NCBI GenBank assembly: GCA_039714075.1
Contig: JBDLKA010000076.1
Coordinates: 1 to 18,102 of the forward strand
Source of the DNA: Candidatus Krumholzibacteriota bacterium
Lineage (GTDB): Bacteria; Krumholzibacteriota; Krumholzibacteriia; LZORAL124-64-63
Reading direction: 5' to 3'
DNA length: 18,102 nucleotides
The translations under genes and the position numbers were made by a program. This document shows, piece by piece, positions 1,645 to 17,078 of this stretch. Every line of letters begins with the position of its first letter. The stretch's first letter is position 1. Below the pieces are notes generated by a model, which had not been told where the DNA came from, ran no database searches, and saw nothing but the letters and a program-made list of their open reading frames with translations.

Positions 1645-4227
1645 TCACTCCACCCGAGTCTTGAAACTCACGCTGAAGCCGGGATGGTTCACCCCGTCCG
1701 AGGCGGCAAACGCACCTTTGGGCACCACGCGCATGTGCGTCACCACGGGGTCGAAACCCAGGACGTCGGGCACTGGCACGTAGTTCCAGGTGGCGCCGCC
1801 GTCGCTGGAAAACTCCAGGTCGTCGGCCGGATCCGCCAATCCGCCGTAGGTGTAGCTCATCCCCCCGGGCGTCACACCGTCCGCGAAAGCTACCGGTCCG
1901 GATCCCGCACCCGCGAAATCACCCACGAAAACCGCCGTGTTCGCCGGGATGGGATCGGTCATGGCCAGGGCGTCGGCGTCGGCCGGACCCGGGCCCGTAT
2001 TGACCGCCGTGATGACGTTCAGAACCACCGCCCCGGGGATGGCCTTGGGATTGGCCAGCAGGTTCACGGGATCCGATTCGGTCACCGTGGTCTTGCTGAC
2101 CAGGATGTTGGGGACCAGCGCGGTCACCGCGGTTACACCGCCGAACTCCGAAGTGGATCCACCCATCGTGGCGGTCATGGTCAGCAGGTCGCCCGTGACC
2201 ACGCCGGCCGGCAGCGGGATCACGAACTGGAAACGGTTGGTGTTGTCCTGGCCGACCGGAACTCCGTTCACCGGCAGGGGACCGTACAGGCTGGTCGTCC
2301 CGTCCAGGTCCAGCGCCGAACCCTCGGTCAGGGTCGTGACGTAGGTTTCCCCTTCCCCCAGGCCCGACGGGTCGGCGGCCGCGATGAACATTTCGATCAT
2401 CGAGCCCGGCCGCGCCCAGCCGCTCAGGGTAAGTTCGCCGCCGACGTTGAGCGCCGATTCCAGCACCGGGAAATTCAAAAGGTCATTGCCGCCCGCATCA
2501 CCGTCGCCGTTGTCGTTCAGGGTATAATAGGGAGCCACGCCGCTACGATCGTTTTCGCCGCCGGCCAGCAGATCGATCCCCACCTGGCCCGTGGGCGCCC
2601 ATCCGCCGGTATTGGTGATGGTGCCGTTCCCGTAAATTGAATTCCGGGTAATGGTCACCGCGTTCGCCGCCGGAACGACCATCACGCCCGCACCGTAATT
2701 CTCGGCCAGGACGTTGCCCTGAACCAGGAGGCCGCCGCTGACAACCCGCACGCCCGGGGTTTCCGTGCCGCCGATCGCGGCCATACCGTTGCGGCGGATC
2801 GTATTATCAAGCAGGGTGATTGCCGCCGAACCGGCCTCCACATCCACCCCCGCGCCACCGTTTTCGTGGATCAGGTTTCCGGTCACCGTGACATTCGAAC
2901 ACCCGTCCAGGCTGAGGCCGTTCTGCGCCCCGTCGGACTGGGCGTTGGCGAAGATCTCGTTGCCTTCGATCAGCCATCCGTCGGTACCCGCCCGCGCCTC
3001 GACGCCGTGCCGGTCGCTGAAGGCGATCAGGTTTCCGTGGAGCGTCCCGCCGGTCGCCCCCGCCAGGGTGATCACCGGCACCGACCGCCAGGCGCCGGGA
3101 TCGGTGAATCCCCCGGGACCCGTGCCCAGGACATTTTGTTCGATGATCGTGCCGGCGCAAGTCTCGACCAGAATGTTCCCCATGGCCGCACTCCAACCGA
3201 AACTCGAAAAGCTGTGGACCGAAAGGTTGCGCACGGTCGTCAGGTCGGCCTGGATGCGCAGTCCGAACAACGTCCCGTTGGAACCGGCAATCTCGAGTTC
3301 GGGCCGGGCGACCGTCGCCACGGCCGCGCCGCTCGTTCCTACCCCTCCTCCGGTTCCCAAAACACCTGGATTCGCATCGAGGATCGCGACTCCGTTCGCC
3401 GCGTCGAAGGCCACGCCGTCCACTGTCGTTCCCGGGTCCGTCAGGGCCGGCAGATTGGCAGTCAGCGACAAACGCCACCACTGTCCTCCACCGCCCGAGG
3501 CATTGGGCGCCACCGCCGGGACGAAGCGCATCACGTTGTCACCCACCATGGCGTTGGCGTTGACCAGGAACTGCCGCAGGCTGCCCTGCACCGCGGTGCT
3601 GCCTCCGCCCAGCGGATTGGTCACCACGGTGAAGCTGAAGCCGAAATCGATATTGTCGGCGTGGGGACCGCTGACGTCCGCCCGGCCCACATGCTGGTAA
3701 ATATTATCCGCCGGATTGGTGCTGCCCGTGTTGAAGCCGTCCGAAACCCCGGGGGTCGCCCCACCGAAGCGCGGCCCCACATCCAGGGCGATGGTGGTGG
3801 GATCATCTCCCACCGTCTGCTGGGCCCAGACGTTCGCCGGGCCGAATCCGCCGTTGAAACCCGCCGAAGGGCTCATGCCCCGGGAATTCACCGCCACCAG
3901 GTAATAATCCCCCGTGGCATTGGTCTCGACCTTGAAATTGAAGGCCCCCGAGGCGTTGGTGGTATGTTCCTCCAGGAAGGTGTCGCCCGCGTCGACCAGG
4001 CCATTGTTGTTGCCGTCCCTGTACAGGCGCACACCCAGCCCGCTGGTTTTAAAGTCGCCCACGAGGGAACCGTCGCCCAGAATGTCCTCGTAGACCGTGC
4101 CGCGCACGGTGCGGCGCCGGGCCTCAGCCGTATCCGCCCAAAGAACCGACCCCGCGACCACCAACAACAACATCATTGCCCGCAGTGCTTTTCCTTTATC
4201 CATGGTCATGCCCATTATCCTATTCAT
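1645..4227 (-). CDS. Exported multidomain surface protein/adhesin: SdrD-B-like N-terminal domain, right-handed parallel beta-helix, Ig-like domain, C-terminal truncated DUF11; putative tip subunit
   Basis: Signal peptide ...LLVVAGSVLWADTAEA. 'VRGTVYED..GDG...V.LYRD.NNNG..D.GD......TNASGAFNF' (SdrD-B/CnaB-like). Repeated 'I.GN.I..N...G' beta-helix turns. 'IDL....TLNDNGDGD.GGN.LLNFPVL'. C-terminal 'ILVSKT...AIPGA....I...NTG......TDPIP'. ATG 4227 overlaps the upstream stop; downstream ATGs (4215, 4209, 4203) are alternative starts. Confidence 0.85.
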   Translation of the reverse strand: MNRIMGMTMDKGKALRAMMLLLVVAGSVLWADTAEARRRTVRGTVYEDILGDGSLVGDFKTSGLGVRLYRDGNNNGLVDAGDTFLEEHTTNASGAFNFKVETNATGDYYLVAVNSRGMSPSAGFNGGFGPANVWAQQTVGDDPTTIALDVGPRFGGATPGVSDGFNTGSTNPADNIYQHVGRADVSGPHADNIDFGFSFTVVTNPLGGGSTAVQGSLRQFLVNANAMVGDNVMRFVPAVAPNASGGGGQWWRLSLTANLPALTDPGTTVDGVAFDAANGVAILDANPGVLGTGGGVGTSGAAVATVARPELEIAGSNGTLFGLRIQADLTTVRNLSVHSFSSFGWSAAMGNILVETCAGTIIEQNVLGTGPGGFTDPGAWRSVPVITLAGATGGTLHGNLIAFSDRHGVEARAGTDGWLIEGNEIFANAQSDGAQNGLSLDGCSNVTVTGNLIHENGGAGVDVEAGSAAITLLDNTIRRNGMAAIGGTETPGVRVVSGGLLVQGNVLAENYGAGVMVVPAANAVTITRNSIYGNGTITNTGGWAPTGQVGIDLLAGGENDRSGVAPYYTLNDNGDGDAGGNDLLNFPVLESALNVGGELTLSGWARPGSMIEMFIAAADPSGLGEGETYVTTLTEGSALDLDGTTSLYGPLPVNGVPVGQDNTNRFQFVIPLPAGVVTGDLLTMTATMGGSTSEFGGVTAVTALVPNILVSKTTVTESDPVNLLANPKAIPGAVVLNVITAVNTGPGPADADALAMTDPIPANTAVFVGDFAGAGSGPVAFADGVTPGGMSYTYGGLADPADDLEFSSDGGATWNYVPVPDVLGFDPVVTHMRVVPKGAFAASDGVNHPGFSVSFKTRVE

Positions 4228-7200
4228 GCGGACCACCCATGAAGGCCTTGAGGATGGTGCCCGCGGTTTCCTGGTCGAATTTCAACCGGAAGCGCAGGAA
4301 CGGTCCCTGGGCCGTGAAATCGGCGGCCGAGAAGTCTGCGTCGTAGAAGCCGATGAAGTTGTAGCCCAGGCTCATCCAGACATTGTTCATCACGTTGAAT
4401 CCGAAAGAACCCCCGGCGCTGTAGTCGATCTGCTTCGCGTACCACGAGTGCAGGCCGCTCAGCCTGAAGCCCAGATCCATCCGCGGGCTCAGGTTCTGCC
4501 GTACTTCGCCGCCGAGCAGATCGGTCAAACCCTTGTAGCGACGGCCGGCGATGTCGTCCTGGTTGTACTTGATCCCGTGCTGCAACGCGATCTGGGTGTT
4601 GCGGCCCGAGTAGTAGGTCAGATTCAGATGATTGACGATGCGCCAACCCGACAGATCGGTCGTCAGCGAGTAGCGTTCCTCGGTTACCCAATCCAGCCGG
4701 TCCAGGATGACCCAACCCTCGCGGTCCGGCCGCAGGGCCAATCCCAGGCGGATGTCGTATTTCCTGCGCCGGGATCCGGCCTCCCCTTCGGTGCCCGCGA
4801 TCCGGGCCTTGCCCGCCACACCCAGGCCCGAGCGGGGTTCCACCAGCACGCTGGGCACCACGGCCCATTTGTCGTCCAGGGCCGAGTTGCGGATCTCGAA
4901 GCGACTGTTCCATTGCCAGCGCTCGGCGTTGTAGCCCACGGCCGTCGAAATTGCCGTGAAACCGGCCAACGCCCCCGAAGCGGGCGGGACGTTTTCGTTG
5001 ACCCGCGGTGTGTCGAAACCCTCGGTCGCTTCGCTGTGATCCAGGCCGAAGTCCATGTTCCAGTGATCGCTGACCTTCCACAACTGGCGCAGACCCAGAT
5101 TGGCGAAGGCCCGCGACCCGTTTTCGGTGAAGCGCCGTTCCCAGCTGCTGGTAACACGTCCGCCGGTCCACGGTTTGGTCTCGAAACCGAACCGGGCGCC
5201 GCGCGTGTCCCCCGCCGCTCCGTTGGTGATTTCATAACGGGACAGCAGGTTCAGGTTGCGGACGATTTCAAAATCGGCGCCCAGCGTGGTCCGCGTGGGG
5301 TAGTCCACGTTGCGGTTCTCTCCATCCAGCGACTGCTCGTGGTCCGCCGAGAATTTCAACCGCCGGTTCCGCGTGCTGATTTCCCCGCCGCCGGTGATCT
5401 GGGTCGAACCGTGGTCGTTCAGGACCGTGAACCTGTCCTCTACCCACCGCCCGCCTGCGTGGATACTGAAGATCGAATCACGCCACTGCAGCTTGCCCTC
5501 GATGTTGTCCCGCCGCGAACCGTTGGCCAGGTTGTCCTGCCGCCAGGTCTGGCTCTTGAAGGTCAGACGGGAATTCATTTTCCAGTCCAGGTCCACCCCG
5601 AGCTTGCGCGTGCCCGCTTCACTCCGGTTCTGCTGGCCCAGCCCGAAGCCGACCTCGTTCTGCCTGACGTAGGCCCGGGCGCCAAACCGTCCCGCGGTGT
5701 TCTTGATTTCCGCCAGGTAGGCGTCGTGCCGTCCGGTCATATCCGTGTCGGTAACGACATACTCGCCTTTCAACTCGGTCTGCGGCCCGAACCGGTAACG
5801 GCCGTCCCAACCGATCAGTTCACCCTTGCCGGCGTTTTCCTCCTGGTGAATGAAGGTCGTGCCCAGCTCCAGCTTGCCGCCGGCCGTGGTGACCGCCCCG
5901 CGACCGCCATAATTGTTGTAATCCCCGTCCCTGCTGCGGGTTTCGTAGTTCACCACGATGAAGATCGGGTTCAGGTTCTCGTCCCTGCTCCAGATGGGCT
6001 CCTTGAAGTAGAGCGAGCCGTCCTCATGATCGATGCTGTAGTCCAGATGGCGGGTCAGCTTCCGCGAACCCAGGATGACCTCGCTGCGGAACCGGTCCCG
6101 CACCTCGATCGTGATCTCCTCCGAGTTGATCACCAGGTCACGGCGCGTCAGGTAATACATGCCGCTGGTACCGTCGCCGCGGATCTCATCACGCATATAA
6201 CCGTGGCCGGTCTGGTTGGCGAACAGGTTCAGACCCACGTGTTCGGACTTCAACTCGGACTTGATGCCGTTGAAGTTTCGCGTGTAGCCCGCCAGCTCAT
6301 TGATGGACAGGCCCGTATTGTAGTCACCGAACAGGGCATAGAACTGGCGGCGTTCGATCTTGACGTAGAGCTTGCGCGAACTGGACGCATCGTAGTCCTG
6401 CCGCGAACCGTCGCCGTACAGCGTGAAGTACTGGTCCGGGTCGATCTCCTGGTACAGGGCGCCGGTGTCCCCGTCCCAGTCCTTGCCGGTGTCGAAGGCC
6501 AGGGTCGCCAGCCACTCGCCCCTGATGCTGCCCTTGGCGTAGAAAGCCACCCGGCCGTCGCTGTACCACCTGTCGTCCGGCGCGTTGCCCTGCAGGGGTT
6601 CCATGTTTCCGTTCAAGGTGTTGTAGCCCACGGTTCCCTCGGCCAGGCCCACCAGGATCCAGTCACGGGCGCCGGGTTCCAGCCAGGTTCGCATTTCCTG
6701 CTGATGGCCCTGGAAATGGAAGTGCAGGACGGTTTCGCCCGTCTTGGTCGTGGGCTGCAGCCTGACATGCGCAACCCCGTCCGCTCCCACCACATAGCTG
6801 GGTCTCTGGCGTCGCATTCCGACCAACGGATCCTTCTGGAAATCCTCGAATTCCTGTTGGGACATGTGGGGTGCGTCCACCGTGAATTCCCCGATGATTC
6901 CTTCACGCGCGGGCTGCCCGTCGCGGTCGGTCAGACGCACGGCGATCACGGGCAGGGTCTTTCCGTCCGCCGTCAGGGTCGACTGTTCGGGCAGCATGGT
7001 CGCCAGGACCGGCGGGCTGGCGTAGTGGACATAGCGCGCCTTGCGCCACAGTTCCTTGCCCTTTTCATCGCGCCCGACGGCCACGAACAGGTTCTCCCCT
7101 TCCTTGAGATCGATCCCCGTCCAGATACTGACCGCCACCATGCCGTCATTACTCGCTTTGACGCCGTCGAAATTCACCGCCTCGACCGGCCGGCCGTCCT

Positions 7201-10153
7201 TGATCAGATCGACATGCTTGGCCTCGCTGTGCTGAACGGCGATATCCAGGCTCGGTATCGACGGCCGGTGGTCCACCGGCGGCCACACCCAACCGTCCAC
7301 CGGATCCGCCGCATCCAGCCAGGCCTTGTCGATGTCCGGCATCACCGGAGGCGCCTGGGGTTTGGGCTTGGCTTCCTCCGCACGCAGCCGTGCTTCGCTG
7401 GCGGTGATGCCCACCGTCGGCGTGGTCGTGTGTTCGACCCGGGACACGGTGTCGGTGCTGGCCTGGTTGAACTTTTCGGCCGTGACCACTCGCAGTTCCA
7501 CCCGCCGGTTGAGTTGCCGGCCCTCGCGGGTGTTGTTCGGCGCCACCGGGTTGTCGGGACCCTGGCCAACCAGGGTTATCTGTTTCGCTTCCAGGTCCAG
7601 CGCCGCGCCCAGATACTCCCCGATAGACCGCGCCCGCGCCATCGACAGGACGTAGTTGTCCGCCCAGGTCTTCTGCCCCCGCGGGGTGATGGGCACGTTG
7701 TCCGAATGGCCGGTCACGTGCATGTGCAGCACCTGTCGCGACTTAAGCAGGTCGGCCAGCTGGTTCAGTTCCTGGTAATAGTCCTCGTGAACCGTGGCGC
7801 TGAACGTCTTGAAGCGCGGACGCAATACCACATCCGGCTTCAGGGTCAGCATCTCGTCCAGTTGTAGGCCGACGATCGTGGTGATCGGATCGGTGCGCCG
7901 GATTTCACCGTTGGGCATGGTGAAGGTCAGCTGCGCACCCACCGGCAGGTCACGGCTTTCACTCAGATTGGTCAGATCGGACTCGAACCGCAGCACCAGG
8001 TTCGAATCGGCGTCCGCGCCATCCAGGCCAAAGGTCAGAAAATTGTCCTGGATGTCGGGATCCCCGCAGACTTCGCCGTCCAACCTGGCGCTGCCCGTGC
8101 GGTAGGCCACCCCATCGGGCAGGATCACGGTCAGGACAAGTTTTTCGAGATCGATGGAACCCTCGTTGATGTTCATGCGGCAACTCAGGGTCGTCCCTGT
8201 CCGGGAGGTCGCCAGTTCCAGTCCGACCTCCCCTTCGGGGATGGGTTCGGGGATGAAGTGCAGGTTGAAGTCCGCCCGCCACAGGGTTCCACCCTGGATA
8301 TCGACGAAGCGCGAATAGGGCCGGCCCGCGGAACGTGTGTCGTCCACGCAGGCCAGGGGTTCATGGCGGTCGGGCAAAGTGGCCACGTCGATCTGGACTA
8401 CGTGCGCTCCCGCAGGTACGCCCTCGAAGTGGTAACGCCCGCCGTCGTCGGTGACGCTGAAGGATCCATCCTCCAGGAAAACCCGCACGCCGGGCACGCC
8501 CACCCTTTCCTCGTCGCGAGACAGTTCGCATTCACCCACCACCACGCGCCCGGTGATGAAGCCGGTGTCGCGGAAGTAGGCGTCACGGACCTGGGTGTAC
8601 ACCACGGCTTCGCCGGAGGAAACCCCCTCCTCCGCCTTTGCCCGCGCGGTGCTGACCACCTCGCCGGGGCGGGACCCTGCGGCAACCTCTATCACGTACT
8701 GGATCTGGATGACTCCGAAGATGGGAATGTCACCCAGGTCGAAGTACAGGGTCCGGCCGTCCGCGGACATCCGCGGGATGATGGTCCCACCGCCTTCGGT
8801 GGTCGCGGAACCGTCCTGGAAAGCGAAGCCCGGCGGCAAATTGTCCGTGATGACAGTCTGCAGCGCCGTGCCGACGCCCCGGTTCTGCAGGCGTATGGTG
8901 TATTGCAGGAAATCACCCTGGCTCACCAGATCGCGGTCGGCGGTTTTGGTCAAGGCCAGCTGGTCCGAGGTCGGTATCGGGTCCATCGGCACGTCAAGAT
9001 TGAGCGCGGGACCGGGATTGACGGAGAACGGTTCGCCCCGCGAACCCGGTTCGGCGATGGCGAACGGCGCGCCGGGCAATAGCTGGAGATTGGCGGTCGG
9101 AACGTTTGACGGAGCCGTGTAGGCCAGCGGACTTTCTATCTCCAGGCGATAGTCTCCGACCACCACGAACGGGAACCGGAATCCACCCGGCGGGAAATCG
9201 TACTGGTGTCCCCCGGTGTCCACCACGGTGCCGCCCGAAGTGATGGTCGCGGGGAAGATGCTGGCCCCGTCGTCACCGAACACCACCGCGGGAAGTCCCG
9301 TGGCGGTATTGATCATGGTGATCACGGCCCCGTCGACCGGCAGGCCGGTGACGCTGTCGAACACATGGCCGGTGGGGTCGATCAGGGCGGTCACCGAAAC
9401 GTTGTCGGTGGGGTCGAGGACATCCACGTAGGACGCCTCGGCGGTCTGGTCGGGTTCCACGGTGAGCATCGGATCCAGGGCCCGCGGCGCAATGCCGCCT
9501 TCGGTCTGGACATAACCGACGAATTCACCGGTGTCGGGACCGGTTTCCGTCACCTGAAGCAGGATGTCGTCCCCATCCGCCAGGACTTCCACCCTGATGA
9601 TGACCGTTTCACGCACGGCCGGATCCAGGTTCTGGTCCAAATCTCCCACCCGAATGAAAACGGGTTCACCCTGATGGATCAGGGTCCGCGCCGTCAGCGG
9701 CAGCGGTTGGCTCAGGTCGAGCGGCTGGACCCTGCCCGGCGGCACCGGCGGCGGCAGCGCCATGAACACCCCGGTGGGCGTCCCGTCGGTGCTGTATGAC
9801 GTTTGCGCCACGTTGACCATTTCGGCGTCGGTGCGATTCGGCGCGTACTGGAGAAGTTCAATGGCGGCCGGAGTCCGCAAATCGACCGTGACGATGGTCA
9901 CCAGATTGGACTCGGCGAAAAGGTTGTCGGTGCCGTCCACGGAATAGTTCGCGGTGGCGATGTTGTCGATGATCGTCCCGGGCGGGCTCTGGGCGAACCC
10001 CCGGGTCGGCGCGGCCAACATCCCCACTGTGAGAACGAAAAGCCAAAGGGCGAATGCCGTGGTCCTGAACAGACGGACGCCCGGACATGTCTGAATGACA
10101 CTTCCGGGACGCCCGAACCTGTTCATGTTGCTAAACCGTTTTGCCACTGGCAA
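4220..10153 (-). CDS. Very large outer-membrane protein: N-terminal Ig/CarboxypepD-like and DUF11 domains, central OmpA-like peptidoglycan-binding domain, Ig domains, C-terminal large beta-barrel
   Basis: 1977-aa ORF with signal peptide ending RGFA. 'GHVFDSVTGLPVDGAVITM'. DUF11 'LALTKTADRDLVSQGDFLQYTIRLQN...ITDNLPPGF'. OmpA-C motif 'VTGHSDN...DNYVLSMARA...GPDNPVAPNNTREGRQLNRRVE' (~7480-7830). About 800 aa of amphipathic beta-strands ending 'GPFLRFRLKFDQ'. Start uncertain (TTG 10153 or ATG 10126). Confidence 0.88.
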   Translation of the reverse strand: MPVAKRFSNMNRFGRPGSVIQTCPGVRLFRTTAFALWLFVLTVGMLAAPTRGFAQSPPGTIIDNIATANYSVDGTDNLFAESNLVTIVTVDLRTPAAIELLQYAPNRTDAEMVNVAQTSYSTDGTPTGVFMALPPPVPPGRVQPLDLSQPLPLTARTLIHQGEPVFIRVGDLDQNLDPAVRETVIIRVEVLADGDDILLQVTETGPDTGEFVGYVQTEGGIAPRALDPMLTVEPDQTAEASYVDVLDPTDNVSVTALIDPTGHVFDSVTGLPVDGAVITMINTATGLPAVVFGDDGASIFPATITSGGTVVDTGGHQYDFPPGGFRFPFVVVGDYRLEIESPLAYTAPSNVPTANLQLLPGAPFAIAEPGSRGEPFSVNPGPALNLDVPMDPIPTSDQLALTKTADRDLVSQGDFLQYTIRLQNRGVGTALQTVITDNLPPGFAFQDGSATTEGGGTIIPRMSADGRTLYFDLGDIPIFGVIQIQYVIEVAAGSRPGEVVSTARAKAEEGVSSGEAVVYTQVRDAYFRDTGFITGRVVVGECELSRDEERVGVPGVRVFLEDGSFSVTDDGGRYHFEGVPAGAHVVQIDVATLPDRHEPLACVDDTRSAGRPYSRFVDIQGGTLWRADFNLHFIPEPIPEGEVGLELATSRTGTTLSCRMNINEGSIDLEKLVLTVILPDGVAYRTGSARLDGEVCGDPDIQDNFLTFGLDGADADSNLVLRFESDLTNLSESRDLPVGAQLTFTMPNGEIRRTDPITTIVGLQLDEMLTLKPDVVLRPRFKTFSATVHEDYYQELNQLADLLKSRQVLHMHVTGHSDNVPITPRGQKTWADNYVLSMARARSIGEYLGAALDLEAKQITLVGQGPDNPVAPNNTREGRQLNRRVELRVVTAEKFNQASTDTVSRVEHTTTPTVGITASEARLRAEEAKPKPQAPPVMPDIDKAWLDAADPVDGWVWPPVDHRPSIPSLDIAVQHSEAKHVDLIKDGRPVEAVNFDGVKASNDGMVAVSIWTGIDLKEGENLFVAVGRDEKGKELWRKARYVHYASPPVLATMLPEQSTLTADGKTLPVIAVRLTDRDGQPAREGIIGEFTVDAPHMSQQEFEDFQKDPLVGMRRQRPSYVVGADGVAHVRLQPTTKTGETVLHFHFQGHQQEMRTWLEPGARDWILVGLAEGTVGYNTLNGNMEPLQGNAPDDRWYSDGRVAFYAKGSIRGEWLATLAFDTGKDWDGDTGALYQEIDPDQYFTLYGDGSRQDYDASSSRKLYVKIERRQFYALFGDYNTGLSINELAGYTRNFNGIKSELKSEHVGLNLFANQTGHGYMRDEIRGDGTSGMYYLTRRDLVINSEEITIEVRDRFRSEVILGSRKLTRHLDYSIDHEDGSLYFKEPIWSRDENLNPIFIVVNYETRSRDGDYNNYGGRGAVTTAGGKLELGTTFIHQEENAGKGELIGWDGRYRFGPQTELKGEYVVTDTDMTGRHDAYLAEIKNTAGRFGARAYVRQNEVGFGLGQQNRSEAGTRKLGVDLDWKMNSRLTFKSQTWRQDNLANGSRRDNIEGKLQWRDSIFSIHAGGRWVEDRFTVLNDHGSTQITGGGEISTRNRRLKFSADHEQSLDGENRNVDYPTRTTLGADFEIVRNLNLLSRYEITNGAAGDTRGARFGFETKPWTGGRVTSSWERRFTENGSRAFANLGLRQLWKVSDHWNMDFGLDHSEATEGFDTPRVNENVPPASGALAGFTAISTAVGYNAERWQWNSRFEIRNSALDDKWAVVPSVLVEPRSGLGVAGKARIAGTEGEAGSRRRKYDIRLGLALRPDREGWVILDRLDWVTEERYSLTTDLSGWRIVNHLNLTYYSGRNTQIALQHGIKYNQDDIAGRRYKGLTDLLGGEVRQNLSPRMDLGFRLSGLHSWYAKQIDYSAGGSFGFNVMNNVWMSLGYNFIGFYDADFSAADFTAQGPFLRFRLKFDQETAGTILKAFMGGPHE

Positions 10154-10186
10154 CCCGCCCGGATGACTCCCGGGACAGGAATCCTT

Positions 10187-11275
10187 CTAGTCGATAATGA
10201 CCGAGAAGGTTTCCGTCGCTGCCGATGCGGCGGCCACGGTGAGGTAGACCACCCGGACATCGGTCACGGCGGGGTCGGTTCCGTTGGCGCCGGGCACCGG
10301 ACCATAGGCCCAGGTCGCACCGCCGTCGTTGGAGTAGGAAACCACCGCGGCCGGAACCGTGGCGACCGATCCCACCAGGAACGCGCTGTTGGCCGGGACC
10401 GAATCGATGACCTCGACGTTGTCCGCGGCCAGGGTACCGGAGTTGGTCACCAGGATCGTATAACCGACCGTTGCGCCCGGAATCGCCTTCGGGTTCACGG
10501 CCAGGTTGAAGGGATCGCTGATCACGCTGGTCGTCTTCATGGCGGTCAAGGTGGTGGTGATGACCTTGTATCCGTCCTTGCTCGAGAACCGGCCGTCGGT
10601 AGCTCCGTCGGCCGTACCGGCGCCGTCGCCGAACACGATCTGGATCAGGGCCGGGTCGTCGGCCGCGGCCGCGTCATCGGCGAGGATGTCCGCGCCCTGG
10701 GCGCCACCGGTGCCGCCGGCGGCGGTCTGTGCGATCAGGTCGTAGGAAGCGACATCGTTGTTGACCTGGACCAGCGGGATATCGGACAACACGAACACCG
10801 TGATGGAGGCCCCGGAAGCCAGTTCGTCGATATAGGTGTCGGTGTCGGCGGCGGTGTAGGTGTTGTCGGCGTCGGTATCGACGTAGACGTTCACGTTGAC
10901 CGCGTTGAAGGTCTCGACCTCACCGAAGGCACCGGTGGGCGAATTCAAGGCCGACAGGGAGTAATCCTGCACCGTGTTACCGTTATTGGTCACGGCATAG
11001 GTCAGGACCTGGGCTAAGCCACCGGGAATCACGGCAACGATGGCAGCATCGACCGTGGTCACGGTCAGGTCGACCTTGTTGTCCACCAGGAAACTGGCGA
11101 TGTTGCTGACCACCTGCGTCTGCGGCGTACCGCTGACGGAGAAGTCGAGGGTCGCCGTGTTGTTGATCGGCGTGCCCGAAGGGGTGTTCTGTGCCAGAGC
11201 GATCGAGGACAGACCGAACACCAGGGCGCCGGCCAGCAGGATCACGAACAGGTTCTTTTTGCTACGGATCGTCAT
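10187..11275 (-). CDS. Exported DUF11-family protein, 362 aa; candidate major fibre subunit
   Basis: ATG 11275 with AAGGAGG RBS. Signal peptide ending SIALA. N-terminal 'TPSGTPINNTATLDF'. Middle Ig domain 'IPGG...LTYAVTNNGN'. C-terminal DUF11 'LTAMKTT...AIPGATVGYTILVTNSG...VIDSVP...TFSVIID'. Confidence 0.88.
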   Translation of the reverse strand: MTIRSKKNLFVILLAGALVFGLSSIALAQNTPSGTPINNTATLDFSVSGTPQTQVVSNIASFLVDNKVDLTVTTVDAAIVAVIPGGLAQVLTYAVTNNGNTVQDYSLSALNSPTGAFGEVETFNAVNVNVYVDTDADNTYTAADTDTYIDELASGASITVFVLSDIPLVQVNNDVASYDLIAQTAAGGTGGAQGADILADDAAAADDPALIQIVFGDGAGTADGATDGRFSSKDGYKVITTTLTAMKTTSVISDPFNLAVNPKAIPGATVGYTILVTNSGTLAADNVEVIDSVPANSAFLVGSVATVPAAVVSYSNDGGATWAYGPVPGANGTDPAVTDVRVVYLTVAAASAATETFSVIID

Positions 11276-11305
11276 TTCAAGCCTCCTTGCCAAAATGGCT
11301 TAGGT

Positions 11306-11779
11306 TTACTGCAACTGTGCCCGGAAGGACACGCTTCCCTCGGCGCCCGGCTCCAGAGGATTCTGGAAGGTCCAGCGCACGTGGGTGAAATCGGACTCCT
11401 TGGCAGGGCGCGGTTGGCCCTTGGCGTCCGTGACGGTCAGGTTCCGAGGCGCGTCGTAGCGTGACCCGCCGTCAGCCGACATGCTGACGGTGGCCTGGTA
11501 CGGGCTGTCCTCCACCTGGGTGAAGACCATGTGGTCGGGGATGGGATTGGTGATCACGACGTCCGCCGCGGGTTCCGTCCCGTGGTTGGCGAAAGTGATC
11601 GTGTAGATGACCTCGTCGCCGGGAACGACCTTGCCGGCCTCCACGCGCGTGGTCACTTCCTGCCCCTCTTCATCGGTCGTGGTGATTTCCGTAAGGGCCA
11701 CGGTGTTCAACTCGACGGCCGCATTCGCGACGCCGGCCGACAACAGGACCAGAACGGTGATGGTTAGCACTCTTTTCAT
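11306..11779 (-). CDS. Small exported single-DUF11 protein, 157 aa
   Basis: ATG 11779 with GGAGGAG RBS. Signal peptide ending VANA. 'VVPGDEVIYTITFANHGTEPAADVVITNPIP...VRWTF..LEPGAEGSVSFRAQLQ'. Confidence 0.9.
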   Translation of the reverse strand: MKRVLTITVLVLLSAGVANAAVELNTVALTEITTTDEEGQEVTTRVEAGKVVPGDEVIYTITFANHGTEPAADVVITNPIPDHMVFTQVEDSPYQATVSMSADGGSRYDAPRNLTVTDAKGQPRPAKESDFTHVRWTFQNPLEPGAEGSVSFRAQLQ

Positions 11780-11808
11780 GACTTTCTCCTCCTTCTTTGG
11801 TTCAACGT

Positions 11809-12798
11809 TCAATCAATCGTGACAGTGAATGTGATCGTCTGTCCGGGACCGCCGACGGCCACGTCACCGATTGCCACGGTGATCGTGCCCGATGTTGTGC
11901 CGCCCACATCACCGTTGTCGCCGTCGAGGGCGTCGGTGACGGAGGCTCCGTTCAGCATCAGGGTGCCCGGGTTGTAGGTTGTGTTCAGGGGAATGTCGTC
12001 GCTGATCACGACGTTACTGGTTGTGCCCGTTCCGGTTGCGGTCACGGACAGCTCATAGGTGATGGTGGCTCCGGTTACCGGCCGCGATCCCCCGAAGGGG
12101 TCGACCACCACGGCGGATTTGAGAATGGCCAGCTGCGCGGACAGGGGCACGATGCGGTAGGTTCCCCGATCGTCCGCCAGGCCTCCACCGGCGCCCACCA
12201 CCGCATCCACGCCCATCTCTCCCGCCCCGACGATGACCTCCCCGGGGTTTCCGCTTCCCGTATTGGAGACGACGTCCAGACGGCTGTCCCCCAGCTGGTC
12301 CACGAGGGCGCCGGACGGGATGTCGTTCAGCAGGAACAGCATGGTGAAGGCGTCCGCGGCCAGGACCGGGTCATTGCCGCCGGGGATGTAGAGTTCGTCG
12401 CTGCCCGGGTCGAAGCTGCCGTTCCCGTTGGTGTCCAGGTGGATGTTCGTCAGGTTGGGGTCGAAGTCGTCGCCCGTCAGCGTGCTGAGGCCCGTCAGCG
12501 CGTAGGAGTCGCTGCCGTTGCCGATGTTGGTCAGCCGGAAGGTCAAGGCCTGGCCACCGGCGCCGGGCTGGACCGCAACCGGCGCGGCGTCCTGCCACAC
12601 CAGGCTGAGATCAAGCACCTCGGCCACCGACGTGGTCACGGTGTTGCTGACACCGGAGTAACCAGTACCGGTGATGGTGTAGTTGATGATCGCCTGGCTG
12701 GTGATGTCGGTACCCGCGGGCGTGCCGCCGGCAAAGGCGCAAGCGGCCCCAGCCAGGCAGAAAACCGTTACCGGAATCAGGCGAGAAATAAGCCTCAC
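11809..12798 (-). CDS. Exported DUF11-family protein, 329 aa; candidate minor/adaptor subunit
   Basis: GTG 12798 with GAGGGAAGGA upstream. Signal peptide ending ACAFA. N-terminal 'GTPAGTDITSQAIINY'. 'VQPG....LTFRLTNIGNGSDSY'. C-terminal DUF11 'LAILKSA...TGATITYELSV...VVISDDIP...ITFTVTID'. Confidence 0.87.
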   Translation of the reverse strand: MRLISRLIPVTVFCLAGAACAFAGGTPAGTDITSQAIINYTITGTGYSGVSNTVTTSVAEVLDLSLVWQDAAPVAVQPGAGGQALTFRLTNIGNGSDSYALTGLSTLTGDDFDPNLTNIHLDTNGNGSFDPGSDELYIPGGNDPVLAADAFTMLFLLNDIPSGALVDQLGDSRLDVVSNTGSGNPGEVIVGAGEMGVDAVVGAGGGLADDRGTYRIVPLSAQLAILKSAVVVDPFGGSRPVTGATITYELSVTATGTGTTSNVVISDDIPLNTTYNPGTLMLNGASVTDALDGDNGDVGGTTSGTITVAIGDVAVGGPGQTITFTVTID

Positions 12799-13182
12799 GA
12801 AATCGGATCCTTCCCTCGGCAAATGACGGCGCCCCGGACGAGGGATGGACCCGTCCCTGGGGCGTTCGGGTCCAGCGCCGATCCTTCGGCGCGTAACCCA
12901 TTACTGGCTCTTGTTTTTTCGGGAATTCAAGGGGACGGCTTTAGGGGGATATTCGCTGGGAGGGCACAAGGAACTATAATAATTGCAGGATTTTATCTTA
13001 TTTCTTGGTTTTTTGCATTTTCATTATCGCCCCAGGCCATTTCGATTCTTTGCGAGTCGGGATTCAGGAGGATTTTTGTCGTGACCGGCTCGATATTCTC
13101 AATTAGGATTCGGTTCAACATCATTGAATGACACATCTCGCTCAGAACATTGGATTCGAAAAAACCCTGGAGGGAGTCACTC
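12799..13182. promoter_or_regulatory. Divergent intergenic control region: AT-rich core plus GC-rich hairpins in the DUF11-operon leader
   Basis: Non-coding gap between divergent starts. AT-rich 12970-13030. Inverted repeats gcgccga/tcggcgc (12875-12892) and cgcccc...ggggcg (12830-12864). Exact promoter boxes not assigned. Confidence 0.55.
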
Positions 13183-13719
13183 ATGTTCAAGAAAATCCTG
13201 TTCCTCACGTTGGTGACCGCGGTCCTGTGCCCCCTGACGGCCATGGGCAGCATCTACTTCGGAGCCGGCATCGGAAACTCATGGCAAAGCGCGACCGTCG
13301 AGGCCGGTGATGTATTCGACGAGGTATCGGAGATCAGCCAAAGTTCAACCGGTTGGAAGATTTTTGCCGGTTTCAAGAGCGAGAGCATTTTCGGCATCGA
13401 GGGCGGTTACCGGGACCTGGGCAAGGTCGAGTCCCCGTTTGCCGGATTGAATTACGGGATCAGCAGCGACGGCTGGGACATCGCCGCCATGGGCCACCTG
13501 GAAATCGCGATCATCGATCTCTTCGCCAAGGCGGGCGCCTTTTTCTGGTCCACCGATTCCAACTTCATCGGTGACGACAGCGGGACCTCCTTCCTGTGGG
13601 GTCTGGGTGCGGGGGTTTCCCTCGGGCCGGTCGGTATCCGGCTCGAATGGGAAAGCATGGAGGTTGGATCGATGGACAATCTCTCGATGTTGAGCCTGGG
13701 GGCAACTTTCGGGTTCTAG
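13183..13719 (+). CDS. Small outer-membrane beta-barrel protein (OmpA transmembrane-like / OMP_b-brl), 178 aa
   Basis: ATG 13183 after GGAGGGAG. Signal peptide. 'IYFGAGIG', 'GWKIFAGF....FGIEGGYRDLG', 'DLFAKAG', 'WGLGAG', 'IRLEWE', C-terminal 'LSLGATFGF' BAM-type terminal Phe. Confidence 0.9.
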   Translation: MFKKILFLTLVTAVLCPLTAMGSIYFGAGIGNSWQSATVEAGDVFDEVSEISQSSTGWKIFAGFKSESIFGIEGGYRDLGKVESPFAGLNYGISSDGWDIAAMGHLEIAIIDLFAKAGAFFWSTDSNFIGDDSGTSFLWGLGAGVSLGPVGIRLEWESMEVGSMDNLSMLSLGATFGF

Positions 13720-13732
13720 GCTTGGCTAGGGT

Positions 13733-13758
13733 GACGGCCGCCTGAAAGGGCGGCCGTC
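13733..13758. terminator. GC-rich hairpin between convergent genes, probable intrinsic terminator
   Basis: gacggccgcc-t-gaaa-g-ggcggccgtc: 10-bp perfect stem plus U-G pair with GAAA tetraloop, 14 nt after the OMP stop. Only a short T run follows. Confidence 0.7.
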
Positions 13759-13802
13759 CATTTACCGAAGGAACTCAGCCCACGAATCCCAGGCAGGTCA
13801 TT

Positions 13803-14615
13803 CTACTGGTCGAAATTTCCTTCAGTGGACTTTTCCCTGGTTCCGAAGGGAAGATGATACCGCAACCCCATGGCAAAACCCCCTTCAAATAGACTTTCCG
13901 TTGAACCAAGGCGTACGCTTAGATCCAGATCAAACCGATTCGAAAGCGGCAGGAACACCTGCTGAACAAAGCCAAGACCATCATAAAAACCGGCCGACAA
14001 TCCGGAAAACAGTCGCGCTTTGGAACCAACGGGATAGCCCATGCCAATTTTGAAATAGCCTCCCCCTGAAGCCAACGGGAGATCCTCGTTCAATGAAGTC
14101 TGGAAATTTGCCTTATGGTAGTTTCCGATACGGAGGTGAGAACTCATGGGAAGGTTGTCTGAAGAATCCCCAAAGGTGAAAGGAATTTCACTGCTCAAAT
14201 ACCCGGCCCCGATTCCGATATACTTGCTTTCCATCGCTGCATATGGGTTGTAGTAGCTGTAGGAAACCGATTGTTCATAACTATCACTTATCTGTGCCCC
14301 ATCAACATAGCTGGACAGGGGCATCCGTGCATTGGAATCCAGATTGCCGCCCCGAACGCCCAGGGCGAAAATGACACCACTTTCAGAACAGTGGCTAACC
14401 TGCACCGACCCGGCCATGTCTACGAATTTGTTTTTTTCCGACGCGATGGGATTGCCGGAGCAATCCCGAATGACCGAGACCACCTGGCCGACACCCCCAT
14501 GGGCACTGACCGTTAATTCATCGGGATGTTCCGGGTCGATCCGTATTCCGATGGGCATGACAATTATGAACAACCACAAGGTCGTCCGACGTAATTTGTA
14601 GGCAAATCCACCCAT
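13803..14615 (-). CDS. Hypothetical protein, 270 aa, possibly an outer-membrane beta-barrel
   Basis: AAGGGGG RBS, N-terminal hydrophobic stretch, Gly/aromatic alternating strands (YIGIGAGY, YFKIGMGY, FDLDLSVRLG, FAMGLRYHLPF). Confidence 0.6.
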   Translation of the reverse strand: MGGFAYKLRRTTLWLFIIVMPIGIRIDPEHPDELTVSAHGGVGQVVSVIRDCSGNPIASEKNKFVDMAGSVQVSHCSESGVIFALGVRGGNLDSNARMPLSSYVDGAQISDSYEQSVSYSYYNPYAAMESKYIGIGAGYLSSEIPFTFGDSSDNLPMSSHLRIGNYHKANFQTSLNEDLPLASGGGYFKIGMGYPVGSKARLFSGLSAGFYDGLGFVQQVFLPLSNRFDLDLSVRLGSTESLFEGGFAMGLRYHLPFGTREKSTEGNFDQ

Positions 14616-14632
14616 TATGGCCCCCTTGTTTT

Positions 14633-15502
14633 CTACTGATCACGACTCCCTTTTTGAACGCGCTTGAAGCTGTTGAATCTTGTCAATAAAGCATCGAACC
14701 CGGCTTTCTCGTGCGTGGAAAGTCCGTTCAGCCGCGAGCGATGGTCCTGCGGCTGAGGCAGGATCCGCCAGTTTTCACCTTCCAATACCAGGAAGGCTTT
14801 TTCCAGTTCATACTTTTCCGGAAAGTCCGGGGACGTCTGCTCGAAAGCACAAAGGGCCAGGCGCCCGTCAGCAATGGTTTCAACCACCCGGTTGATGATC
14901 CGGTGGTCGGCGAAAAACACCACTCCTTCCTCGACAAACCTGCTCACAGCCTTTTTCTGATCGGGGTTATGCATCAGGAACAATTCCGGTGCTTCACCGG
15001 CCTGCCCGTTCTGAAGCAGATCAAACAGATGCTGAAGAACACTATCTGCGGGACACGCGGCCATCGTCGTTGTTTCGGAGGCGGTGGGGGTTTCCTGTTC
15101 GGGGATTCCGGCCCCCTGTGCGCTGTCAACGGAACTGAAAACGGTATAATAGACAAGACCCGCTATCGACCAGAATACGATCCAGCTCAGGTGTTTTCCC
15201 TTTGATGCCGCCAGGGCCATCGCACCACTGAGAAAAAACACGGCACCGACAGTCAACAAAACCACCCGCGCCGGGTCAGCCGTTTCGCGGGAAACGGACC
15301 ACACCAGAAAACCCAGACCCCACCAGGCGACGGTTGTCAGGTGCCAGGCAAACCGAAGGGTTCTTTTGGTGAAGAAGTCACTGCCGAAAAGATGTGGAAT
15401 ACGCGAACTCCGAAACAGGCGTATCAGGATGAAGCGCTCGCCCAGGTACGAGTGGACAACTCCAATGGCGAAGCAGAGTATGGCTGCCGTCAGCAATACC
15501 AT
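14633..15502 (-). CDS. Hypothetical protein, 289 aa: ~122-aa four-TM membrane domain, linker, soluble C-terminal domain; lies directly after an attC site
   Basis: GGAGGGA RBS. 'GVVHSYLGERFILIRLF...FTKRTLRFAWHLTTVAWWG...KHLSWIVF' hydrophobic domain, then PEQETPTASETTT linker and a hydrophilic domain. Confidence 0.75.
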   Translation of the reverse strand: MVLLTAAILCFAIGVVHSYLGERFILIRLFRSSRIPHLFGSDFFTKRTLRFAWHLTTVAWWGLGFLVWSVSRETADPARVVLLTVGAVFFLSGAMALAASKGKHLSWIVFWSIAGLVYYTVFSSVDSAQGAGIPEQETPTASETTTMAACPADSVLQHLFDLLQNGQAGEAPELFLMHNPDQKKAVSRFVEEGVVFFADHRIINRVVETIADGRLALCAFEQTSPDFPEKYELEKAFLVLEGENWRILPQPQDHRSRLNGLSTHEKAGFDALLTRFNSFKRVQKGSRDQ

Positions 15503-15537
15503 TGTAAAACCATCCCTCCGGGATCCATTTCAATTCC

Positions 15538-15635
15538 AACAAACTTTGGGCCCATCCGCGAAATCGATTGGTGGGAAACTGGCGAAAGCCGGATGCGTGA
15601 CAAGCGGCTTTGTCAGGTGCAAGCTCCTGTTAGCC
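15538..15635 (-). mobile_element. Integron attC site (degenerate right half), 98 bp
   Basis: Minus strand: R'' GGCTAAC (contains the upstream gene's TAA), AGGAGC, L'' TTGCACCTGAC, 52 nt, GCGGATGGG, CCCAAA, GTTTGTT. Gap-free colinear with the attC at 16656-16753. Confidence 0.75.
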
Positions 15636-16640
15636 GTTCACAGACACTAACGCCAACTCCAGCTCATGCGCTTCGTCAGGCTGGATGCCCACCGCACGAA
15701 CCCTTCGACATGTCCCATACGGTCCTTGCACATATACCGCCTCTGAGAAAATAATCCAATGCGTAGGCGGGCCAATCAGTTTGAGATTTAGGGATTCCTT
15801 ACCAAATTCTGGTTGCTTGCTGCAAATTTCGGAAATCTCGGACCGCGAAACATCCATAGTATATCGGAGCCCACTGCGGATCAGAACACGCTTTTCGCCA
15901 ACTAGAATCGGGCGAAGCACCGTTGCGCGATAGTCGGCAACCATCCACAGTGCTCCGTATGCGGAGCTAAGAGTGAAGAGCCACGCCGCGGCCGAATTCC
16001 ACATGGAGAGCAACAAATGTACAGCGAACCCCTCAACCGCCAAAAGCACGACAAAGCCTAATACGATTCCTGCCTGACCACTTCGACGGTGGTGGGTGAA
16101 CGCTGCTGTACCTGCAAGATCGTGGGGTACCGACCGCCACGCGCCCAACGCGTAATAGAAGATTCCAATTTCGGAAGCGAATACCCCTGCTGCTCGATTG
16201 TTGCGCAACAACCCAAAGGCCGCGCTCCGGAATTGTTCAAGGGGGTCCAGGGCTACACTGCGTCGTGCTTCACGCAATGCCCTTCCGGCACGCCAAATGA
16301 TCCACCCCAACAAACCTAATTCTGCGGGGACAACAATTGCTTCAAGAAAATGTAGCGTCCGTTGGTGACCGGAAGGAAGCACTATGGAGGCTACCAGCAA
16401 GCTGGCCACTACAACGGGGGCCAACCTGAAAATGGAGTGCCCGGCCCGACGTACCAAAAGAAAGTAAAATGCCAGCGGGACCAGGATAACCATGTCAATT
16501 GTCAGCCCAATGACAACAACACCAGCGCTCTCGATGCTAGACAGCCGACTAACTACGGTCAAAGCAGTTGCATAGACCGCCGTTACGACGCCCAAGAACA
16601 ATAGGAGTGGCATACGTTGATTTGGTATGGCTTGAATCAA
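15630..16640 (-). CDS. Multi-pass membrane protein of unknown function (gene cassette), ~336 aa
   Basis: Several hydrophobic helices. Start placed at TTG 16640 (GGAGAGGG upstream) or ATG 16613, because the ORF-track extension to 16721 runs through an attC. The stop lies inside R'' of the next attC. Confidence 0.8.
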   Translation of the reverse strand: MIQAIPNQRMPLLLFLGVVTAVYATALTVVSRLSSIESAGVVVIGLTIDMVILVPLAFYFLLVRRAGHSIFRLAPVVVASLLVASIVLPSGHQRTLHFLEAIVVPAELGLLGWIIWRAGRALREARRSVALDPLEQFRSAAFGLLRNNRAAGVFASEIGIFYYALGAWRSVPHDLAGTAAFTHHRRSGQAGIVLGFVVLLAVEGFAVHLLLSMWNSAAAWLFTLSSAYGALWMVADYRATVLRPILVGEKRVLIRSGLRYTMDVSRSEISEICSKQPEFGKESLNLKLIGPPTHWIIFSEAVYVQGPYGTCRRVRAVGIQPDEAHELELALVSVNG

Positions 16641-16655
16641 AATTTTTCCCTCTCC

Positions 16656-16753
16656 GCCGGACGTTGGGTTCACCTGCAAACGTGTTTGGCACGAACCTGG
16701 CGCCAGCACGGTGAGTGCCAAGTGGCTTTGTCAGGTGGAAGCTCTTGTTCGCT
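16656..16753 (-). mobile_element. Integron attC site, 98 bp
   Basis: Minus strand: AGCGAAC, AAGAGC, TTCCACCTGAC ... TTGGCAC/GTGCCAA stem ... GCAGGTGAA, CCCAAC, GTCCGGC. L''/L' pair with extrahelical bases; R' has GTC instead of GTT. Confidence 0.85.
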
Positions 16754-16784
16754 GAACATGCCACAGCGAATTGGACAAAACCGC

Positions 16785-17078
16785 CTACCCCAGTATCGAA
16801 TCCAAGTCCTGGGCCGCGCCGAGAATGCGTGCTATTTCTACGGGCTTGCTTCCCGATATGTAAACAACCATGTAGGAATAAACTGGAAAGAACCTAACAG
16901 CCCGAGATGTCAAGTCATCGCGATAGTGCCCAGCCTCGGGATTCTCAGCCAGCAGTTGGAATACTTCAAAAAACCGAGCATGAACATCAAGCGCTGACTG
17001 GACGTTATCTGCTGCAATGTACTCCAGTATTGCATCGAAGTCGGCTTCAGCCTCATTCGAGAAAATATAATCGGACAT
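16785..17078 (-). CDS. parE: Type II toxin, RelE/ParE family, 97 aa
   Basis: 'FSNEAEADFDAILEYIAADN..A......F..LAENPEAGHYRDDL....RFFPVYSYMVVY......IARIL' ParE pattern; starts 1 nt after the antitoxin stop. Confidence 0.9.
   Translation of the reverse strand: MSDYIFSNEAEADFDAILEYIAADNVQSALDVHARFFEVFQLLAENPEAGHYRDDLTSRAVRFFPVYSYMVVYISGSKPVEIARILGAAQDLDSILG

Follow-up and report, generated by a model that had tools for sequence, protein, structure and literature searches.

A conserved diderm operon with split CLIPPER (DUF11) domains that may encode a self-ligating, sortase-free surface fibre

An 18,102-nucleotide stretch of Candidatus Krumholzibacteriota DNA (assembly GCA_039714075.1, contig JBDLKA010000076.1), referred to here at its full length as the window, carries five co-oriented genes on its minus strand, some of them overlapping, that encode proteins of 337, 168, 362, 1977 and 863 amino acids (aa) (Table 1). 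In the third of these, the 362-aa protein, a DUF11 domain of the kind known as CLIPPER is divided between the two ends of the polypeptide: the domain at the C-terminus, the acceptor, stops short of its final strands, and two strands that resemble the missing ones, the donor, lie at the mature N-terminus. We consider it probable that a surface fibre is built with the 362-aa protein as major subunit, and that in this fibre each subunit completes the open domain of its neighbour and is joined to it covalently by a Lys–Asn isopeptide bond.

The 362-aa reading frame starts with an ATG at 11275, 7 nt past an AAGGAGG Shine–Dalgarno site, and a scan for promoters and terminators was uninformative (0 promoter-like sites with 2.4 expected, 10 terminator-like sites with 12.3 expected). 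Its product consists of a signal peptide, the donor segment, a middle immunoglobulin (Ig)-like domain and the acceptor domain. DUF11 (PF01345) is the sole Pfam match at an expect value (E) of at most 0.01, scoring 25.3 bits with a cut-off of 24.6 and covering positions 10–70 of the 114 profile positions; TIGR01451 matches with 33.5 bits (cut-off 24). The AlphaFold2 (AF2) model of the monomer has a predicted local distance difference test (pLDDT) value of 92.3 and a predicted template modelling (pTM) score of 0.73; the signal peptide appears in it as a helix over residues 3–21 with low pLDDT at 24–26, and in an alignment of 50 relatives Ala26 is invariant and Ala28 is found in at least 90%. Sequence searches of the PDB with the family profile and with the acceptor domain alone returned no related chain, only chance matches at E >= 0.4, and Foldseek retrieved nothing for the monomer model beyond generic multi-Ig arrays (integrins, antigen I/II) with template modelling (TM) scores below 0.3. 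The acceptors also share an Asp-box-like hairpin of the form S-x-D-G-G-x-T-W, located at aa 311–322 of the 362-aa protein (approximately 10310–10345) and present in the 863-aa and 168-aa proteins as well, which in the PDB search matched sialidase BNR repeats weakly (E ~1).

Relatives were sampled in three ways. A pattern scan of one genome per species yielded 471 loci with relatives, 80 of which were kept for counts. A word-indexed search found 232 relatives similar in length to the 362-aa protein, including the 50 that were aligned. Finally, 1.84 billion cluster representatives were searched exhaustively with a profile, yielding 19,218 matches at E <= 0.001 and 1,907 at E <= 1e-30, totals that are inflated because giant DUF11-repeat proteins match the acceptor part only; those 320–450 aa long among the best 150 matches make up the 109 representatives used below (50% identity clustering, median identity to the 362-aa protein 39%).

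The point at which the acceptor stops emerges from profiles that were built from the related loci and compared with hhalign. The acceptor profile of the 337-aa paralogue aligns to the intact internal DUF11 domain of the 1977-aa family (Prob 97%, E 1e-10, template columns 5–100), and this alignment stops at the last residue of the 337-aa protein itself, while the template goes on with the Asn strand and the final strand. The stop is fixed 5 aa past a conserved Phe column in strand F (Phe357) in most members of each family (362-aa type, 84/86 proteins; 337-aa type, 62/69; tip type, to which the 863-aa protein belongs, 29/36), and 104 of the 109 representatives end at the same distance from the Phe. 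A late strand bearing Asn within the same domain, as expected of DUF11, is thus lacking from the acceptor of the 362-aa protein. At the other end of the protein a 'G-T-x-I-x-N-x-A' segment begins 5 residues past the Ala-x-Ala signal-peptide site and a second strand, 'S-N', comes after it; in intact DUF11 the final two strands read alike ('G-E-x-V-N-T-A ... S-N-x-A'). An earlier annotation made from the sequence alone, the first-pass annotation, had assigned Lys and Asp to C-terminal acceptors and Asn to N-terminal donors. The fixed ends and the hhalign stop bear out the former, and the short distance from the signal-peptide site, which puts the donor at the mature N-terminus, bears out the latter.

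The same annotation had described a Lys/Asp/Asn triad in many DUF11 domains, and this agrees with the solved CLIPPER domain 9IFR, in which Lys715, Asp748 and Asn806 are linked, as crystallography of the recombinant domain reveals, through an isopeptide bond of the intramolecular kind (PMC12617251, available part of the article). The motifs it quoted (INNTA, AMKTT, IDSVP, ILKSA, SDDIP, VSKTT, TDPIP and IDNIA) each occur once and at the ends where it had put them, with one amendment: the acceptor protein that it gave as 329 aa contains the motifs, but its reading frame is 337 aa long and the figure of 329 results from a later start. Except for ~10 inserted aa, Lys247 and Asp291 are spaced as in the intact DUF11 domain within the 1977-aa protein. 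Conservation of the triad is pronounced in every sample. Lys247, Asp291 and Ala41 are invariant among the 50 aligned relatives, and Asn39 is found in at least 90%; in open reading frames (ORFs) of the 362-aa type from the 80 loci, Lys and Asp are each kept in 86/86 cases and the donor position is Asn in 74/79; and all three residues occur together in 100 of the 109 representatives (individually, Asn in 101/109, Lys in 106/109 and Asp in 108/109).

How two subunits might fit together was modelled with ESMFold2, using two copies of aa 29–362 with their own alignment in 3 runs. The interaction prediction score from aligned errors (ipSAE) was 0.71 in each run and 0.00 for the best of 3 controls; in a benchmark the mark was reached by 20/30 proteins solved as same-chain pairs and by 1/23 solved as single chains, counts that hold only roughly here because of the use of an own alignment. 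At least 97% of contacts are shared between the runs, the pLDDT of the partner is at least 92, and, since the PDB holds no chain related by sequence, memory of a close homologue is unlikely to lie behind the score. In the predicted interface residues 29–67 of copy 2 pack against residues 239–297, 347 and 361–362 of copy 1, so that acceptor residues 243–251 and 282–292 as well as the acceptor C-terminus (361–362) and the donor N-terminus (29–31) are all included, and donor residues 41–47 run antiparallel to 283–290. The model also offers a role for the invariant residues 263–268 (the 'NPKAIPGA' loop), which touch 64–65 ('VD') across the interface, with the invariant residues 264/265 and 64/65 as the contacting pairs, and whose invariance is otherwise unexplained. 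The contact register (i+j ~330–332, from the contact list and not from distances) is compatible with Asn39 facing Asp291 to Val293; together with the alternation of conserved residues I37/N39/A41 and V287/V289/D291/V293 it suggests that Asn39 lies opposite this stretch. A passing two-copy score of this kind lends support to the pairing and does not amount to binding.

Three two-module tandem homologues of ~700 aa (P0121, P0122 and P0128, all those found at 635–1000 aa) have their second donor motif 5 residues past the end of the first acceptor, where it aligns to the 362-aa protein from Gly34 onward, and each of them still has a donor left free at the N-terminus and, at the C-terminus, an acceptor left open. 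Such connectivity matches an intact DUF11 as well as the head-to-tail model, and not a fold-back. The three proteins may themselves be double-length subunits.

The remaining proteins of the operon are divided into those with an acceptor only, a donor only, or both. The 863-aa protein combines a beta-helix head (Beta_helix PF13229, E 3e-17) with a C-terminal acceptor that is 41% identical to the acceptor of the 362-aa protein over 132 columns (E 3e-17), and the regular expression for the donor found no match in its first 150 aa. The 41 tip-like proteins of the related loci likewise join unrelated N-terminal heads to a conserved acceptor (Lys in 29/36, Asp in 30/36), and 40/41 are without a donor motif in the first 150 aa. 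The 168-aa protein consists of a signal peptide and one acceptor-type DUF11 (32.9 bits; TIGR01451 41.8 bits), has no donor, and carries Asn89 in place of the catalytic Asp (ITNPIP). The alignment of its profile with the acceptor of the 362-aa protein runs until both proteins end (Prob 98%, E 2e-14), the 75 members of its family all stop at one column, and the column of the catalytic Lys is variable (K 25, T 14, R 14 and N 5 of 75). An 'LNTVA' motif in this protein was considered as an Asn donor and ruled out: the column is K/T/R in the family, with Asn in 5/75, and the motif is the counterpart of 'l-x-l-K-t' in strand A of an acceptor domain that has no donor. Acceptor-only proteins would be left unfinished without a partner, which favours completion between subunits.

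The 337-aa protein resembles the 362-aa protein over its whole length (27% identity, E 5e-20); it exceeds the cut-off of TIGR01451 only, with a sub-threshold match to DUF7507. Its acceptor keeps Lys235 and Asp275, and the family as a whole has Lys in 64/69 and Asp in 63/69, but in the window Ser42 replaces the donor Asn. The claim that the 362-aa protein is the only one with all three residues is therefore correct for the window and does not extend to the family, where the donor position is N in 44, S in 10 and T in 4 of 63 orthologues. Ser, Thr or Cys at this position characterise the Krumholzibacteriia-like lineage. The replacement is not confined to the 337-aa protein: in the Krumholzibacteriia lineage (loci L001–L005 and others) two Asn positions are Ser with the partner Lys and Asp kept, namely in the window the 337-aa donor (12697–12699) and the Asn strand of the intact DUF11 in the 1977-aa protein (8651–8653), and elsewhere these same positions are mostly Asn (44/63 and 13/21, respectively).

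The 1977-aa protein begins with a signal peptide and a donor, continues with Ig-like domains including the intact DUF11 (aa 399–507; Lys403/Asp437, with Ser501 at the Asn position), CarboxypepD_reg, an OmpA-like domain (aa 781–883) and more Ig-like domains, and ends in a giant C-terminal beta-barrel; its Pfam and NCBIfam matches are DUF11/TIGR01451, OmpA and CarboxypepD_reg. The donor Asn is present in 28/28 alignable N-termini of the family, and a donor motif directly follows the signal peptide in 33/57 full-length relatives. The AF2 model of the last 1048 aa (residues 930–1977; alignment of 41 sequences; pLDDT 83, pTM 0.76) comprises Ig-like domains and, after them, long antiparallel strands, more than 30 in number. 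The best Foldseek matches of the barrel are large barrels of the outer membrane (SlpA, SprA, MtrB, LptD, TonB-dependent receptors and FimD), all with TM scores of ~0.2 and none a close relative, and searching the ESM Atlas with the barrel region returned unnamed clusters only. With its OmpA-like domain and modelled barrel this protein is the obvious anchor of the system and a candidate pore. Long ORFs of up to 1256 aa run antisense to its gene (e.g. 4097–7867, plus strand); we take them as the usual artefact of coding sequence with high G+C and not as genes.

Table 1. Genes of the operon, segments of the 362-aa protein and positions of the triad residues in the window
Feature	Position	Strand	Remarks
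337-aa paralogue gene	11809..12822	minus	start codon uncertain
Lys235 (ILKSA) and Asp275 (first D of SDDIP, by alignment)			337-aa protein acceptor
168-aa 'dead acceptor' gene	11306..11812	minus	overlaps stop of 337-aa gene by 4 nt; start possibly Met12
362-aa putative major subunit gene (P0001)	10187..11275	minus	ORF and Shine–Dalgarno site
Signal peptide, aa 1–28	11192..11275	minus	predicted cleavage past Ala26-Leu27-Ala28, read from sequence
N-terminal donor segment, aa 29–67	11075..11191	minus	two strands resembling the last two of intact DUF11
Asn39 (INNTA, donor)	codon 11159–11161	minus	motif occurs once
C-terminal acceptor domain, aa 239–362	10190..10561	minus	DUF11/CLIPPER without final strands
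Lys247 (AMKTT, strand A of acceptor)	codon 10535–10537	minus	motif occurs once
Asp291 (IDSVP, 'D-x-x-P' strand of acceptor)	codon 10403–10405	minus	motif occurs once
1977-aa donor-only candidate anchor/pore gene	4220..10153	minus	start possibly Met10
Asn64 (IDNIA)	codon 9962–9964		1977-aa protein donor
863-aa acceptor-only putative tip gene	1645..4236	minus	overlaps 1977-aa gene by 17 nt
Lys715 (VSKTT) and Asp761 (TDPIP)			863-aa beta-helix protein acceptor

The operon is conserved well beyond the window. The gene order 337-168-362-1977 recurs in 53/80 loci and all four core genes are found in 55/80, with a tip-like gene adjoining in 42; contig ends truncate many of the loci. Represented among them are Krumholzibacteriia, Zixibacteria, Eisenbacteria, Fibrobacteres-like bacteria, Myxococcota, Desulfobacterales, Campylobacterales, Gamma- and Betaproteobacteria and Sphingomonadaceae. 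The closest ones belong to metagenome-assembled genomes of Candidatus Krumholzibacteriia, in which the 362-aa protein is 73–79% identical, and cultured Novosphingobium and Sphingomonas strains carry the operon too.

Three independent lines thus favour completion between subunits: the two-copy model, the division of labour within the operon, and the fusions. Pairing between subunits had been put forward by the first-pass annotation, and the parts of its reading that were open to computational tests were all borne out; with the homotypic model passing, acceptor-only tips, a donor-only barrel protein and the tandem homologues, head-to-tail strand complementation between 362-aa subunits now appears highly likely. 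The following scheme would account for these features. Export by the Sec pathway and removal of the signal peptide would leave a subunit with an N-terminal donor of ~39 aa (the last two DUF11 strands, with Asn39), an Ig-like middle and an open C-terminal DUF11. The donor of subunit n+1 would enter the open acceptor of subunit n, head to tail, and complete the fold, bringing Asn39 beside Lys247 and Asp291; the Lys–Asn isopeptide bond would then form autocatalytically, as it does in intact CLIPPER domains, and link the subunits into one covalent chain with no need of a sortase. In keeping with this last point, which the first-pass annotation had also made, no sortase is seen among the family matches of the 13 scanned ORFs of the window. 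The 863-aa acceptor-only protein would cap the distal tip, and the 337-aa paralogue would presumably act as a minor or adaptor pilin. At the base the 1977-aa donor-only protein would end the fibre and anchor it through its own N-terminal donor, with its OmpA-like domain holding peptidoglycan and the giant barrel sitting in the outer membrane, probably as the export pore. For the 168-aa dead acceptor, reversible binding of donor strands in the manner of a chaperone or cap is conceivable. Both the assembly order and the membrane topology set out here are inferred.

A number of observations weigh against this scheme and have to be set beside its rivals. Short donor profiles compared with intact DUF11 do land on its last strands, but weakly (E 0.01–0.15, probability < 4%), and this resemblance is suggestive only. 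The complex score stems from a run with an own alignment, outside the calibration of the model; the regular expression for the donor is missing in 24/57 full-length relatives of the 1977-aa protein; the triad is incomplete in 9/109 representatives; and the Lys–Asn bond itself is inferred from the homology with CLIPPER and from the conservation of the triad. To these is added the AF2 monomer, in which residues 31–50 have a pLDDT of ~93, as if the strand were packed against something within a single chain; it might then fold back in cis. The N-terminal strand would in that case complete the C-terminal domain of its own chain, giving a circularly permuted CLIPPER with an intramolecular Lys247–Asn39 staple and a monomeric surface or periplasmic protein, and there is precedent for isopeptide domains that are interrupted by inserted domains, such as GBS104-like_Ig (Table 1 in the available part of PMC12617251). 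Completion in cis would, however, leave the acceptor-only proteins of the operon (tip type, 40/41, and the 168-aa family) incomplete and the 1977-aa donor with no open acceptor of its own; the fusions place a donor directly past the acceptor of the previous module, and the two-copy model chose the trans arrangement in 3/3 runs. We therefore regard completion in cis as very improbable.

A polymer might also be held together head to tail by donor-strand complementation without any isopeptide bond, the triad being kept for folding or hydrogen bonding. Junctions that lack the Asn are evidently tolerated, as 19/63 donors of the 337-aa family and Ser42 of the window are without it and some junctions can thus not be covalent; the 168-aa family keeps its fold without the catalytic Lys and Asp; and oligomers of the N35A variant of the clostridial protein BsaA are stable in sodium dodecyl sulphate without the bond (available part of 10.1101/2024.11.04.621531). 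Such a polymer is nonetheless unlikely in view of the near-total conservation of exactly those residues that react in CLIPPER (100/109; Lys and Asp 86/86) at ~39% identity, and of the 3 of 9 exceptions in which two of the three residues have gone together. The donor and acceptor ends of each protein type would equally suit a single ordered chain of fixed composition, with tip, adaptor, 362-aa protein and anchor present once each and forming a short covalent stalk on the barrel much like a multi-chain fibrillar adhesin, and no filament has been observed to date. We give such a stalk only a slim chance, because the 362-aa protein appears from its sequence to possess a reactive donor as well as a reactive acceptor, its homotypic two-copy model passes (0.71 vs 0.00 for the best control), and fusions with both ends free suggest open-ended repetition. 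The covalent polymer of 362-aa subunits is the interpretation that we retain.

The surroundings of the operon are less uniform than the operon itself. A conserved accessory enzyme was sought beside it in the 80 loci, and only a hybrid histidine kinase flanks more than 7 of them, the other flanking clusters not having been scanned. This kinase (MASE1, CHASE, PAS, HisKA, HATPase_c and receiver domains) lies near the operon in 18/80 loci from several phyla, for example at L059:3869–7114, and may be a regulator or may cluster merely through its common signalling domains. Just upstream of the operon in the window are an OmpA_membrane-type small barrel protein (13150–13719, plus strand, E 1.7e-13) and a 270-aa ORF without a family (13803–14615, minus strand), neither of which is among the conserved neighbours in related loci. 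Downstream of it lie an ORF for a secreted protein of the histidine-phosphatase family (PF00300, E 2.9e-20; 445–1200, minus strand) and a DUF302 ORF (E 1.9e-17; 1234–1617, plus strand). The G+C content in 1-kb windows is 61–66% over 1001–13000, which holds the five-gene cluster, vs 51–55% over 13001–18000; the shift near 13000 may mark an acquired island or simply a different gene content. Towards the end of the window a Fic/DOC-family ORF (PF02661, E 4.9e-19; 17573–17971, minus strand) is followed ~220 bp downstream by a ParD-antitoxin-like ORF (PF03693, E 6.8e-09; 17080–17352, minus strand), and the pair may be the remnant of a toxin–antitoxin system unrelated to the operon.

Covalent pili are textbook features of monoderms that need sortases, and the pili of diderms (chaperone–usher, type IV, type V and curli) are held to be non-covalent. 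The chances are about even, in our judgement, that the operon represents an undescribed and widespread class of diderm pilus, with split-CLIPPER strand complementation, self-catalysed locks, the 1977-aa protein (donor strand, OmpA-like domain for peptidoglycan binding and a giant outer-membrane barrel of novel type) as exporter and covalent anchor, and a dead-acceptor chaperone. In that case nature would have devised a SpyTag/SpyCatcher polymer of its own, and diderms would have their first covalent pilus that is free of sortase. A 2026 review of pilus routes names for diderms the four just given and no covalent one within its first 300,000 characters (PMC13721041), and our search of the full-text literature, whose coverage leaves out most subscription journals, found no published description of this split-CLIPPER system; the DUF11 papers that deal with haloarchaeal tafi and with hooks of Litorilinea describe other systems. 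If many diderm phyla possess a self-ligating pilus, the known ways of assembly would gain a principle for which, in the available parts of the sources discussed below, there has to date been support from mutagenesis of a single matrix protein of Clostridium and a proposal concerning archaeal threads. Such a pilus would also provide natural, mutually diverged tag/catcher pairs on a CnaA-like fold, with three donor and four acceptor types in this operon, and it draws attention to a large outer-membrane barrel protein without a close structural relative (best matches at TM ~0.2). The idea is open to laboratory tests, as the operon is present in strains of Novosphingobium and Sphingomonas that are in culture.

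Several known systems share individual traits with the one proposed here. Type V pili of Bacteroidota depend on a lipoprotein signal peptide and an N-terminal strand released by a protease; the signal peptide of the 362-aa protein ends in Ala-Leu-Ala before Gln29 and has no lipobox Cys. In SpyTag/SpyCatcher and related engineered split isopeptide domains such as DogTag/DogCatcher, a tag peptide bearing one of the reactive residues becomes a strand in a truncated Ig-like domain that bears the other two, and ligation follows spontaneously. Those are CnaB-type domains cut in the laboratory, whereas here a CnaA-like CLIPPER domain would have been split naturally, for polymerisation. Chaperone–usher pili such as Fim and Pap contain pilins whose incomplete Ig-like fold is made whole by an N-terminal extension of the next subunit, and their subunits are not covalently linked. 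The system described here shares with them, as modelled, an incomplete Ig-like fold completed by the next subunit, and further a tip protein of two domains that is acceptor-only, an outer-membrane barrel and the logic of the gene cluster. It differs in that neither PapD-like chaperones nor ushers (PF00577) are among the families matched by the 13 window ORFs, the barrel resembles FimD at TM 0.17–0.22 only, and the barrel protein additionally has a donor strand and an OmpA-like domain. The donor-strand scheme of these pili is also summarised in the available part of PMC11821415.

The sortase pili of monoderms (available part of PMC13721041) are built, as may be the case here, from Ig-like pilins in an isopeptide-linked chain with tip, shaft and basal subunits. 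Unlike them, the 362-aa protein has a C-terminus without LPXTG or a hydrophobic tail, and no sortase family is found in the scanned ORFs of the window; their bond connects a Lys to a C-terminal Thr, and the bond proposed here would connect side chain to side chain and form autocatalytically. The archaeal thread protein Saci_0406 combines donor-strand complementation with a proposed intermolecular isopeptide bond in a sortase-free filament (PMC9715654, available part). There, according to the same source, the N-terminal alpha-amine (Asp24) would be joined to Asn57 of subunit n+2, without a Lys/Asp/Asn triad, in an archaeal, glycosylated protein that has no Pfam domain. Closer in chemistry is 'donor-strand exchange and lock' in BsaA from Clostridium perfringens, a member of the TasA family, in which an N-terminal donor strand enters the next monomer and mutation of any triad residue abolished oligomers (10.1101/2024.11.04.621531, available part). 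BsaA has a donor Asn, an acceptor Lys/acid triad and a sortase-free intermolecular isopeptide bond, and the 362-aa protein has an analogous layout of residues from which the bond would follow. The two differ in fold family (DUF11, the only Pfam match of the 362-aa protein, places it outside the TasA family), in the catalytic acid, which is Glu and not Asp in BsaA, and in context, BsaA belonging to a monoderm and having no set of outer-membrane barrel, tip and anchor. Among the nearest precedents are also the CLIPPER domains themselves (DUF11, PF01345; 9IFR), which belong to the same family, use the same Lys, Asp and Asn and occur in secreted surface proteins of diderms. The available part of their description (PMC12617251) presents the bond as intramolecular only and mentions neither a split form nor one acting in trans. 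The three CLIPPER residues reside together in one domain of one chain; in the operon described here the domain breaks off behind strand F, and the strand with the Asn would come from the N-terminus of another subunit.

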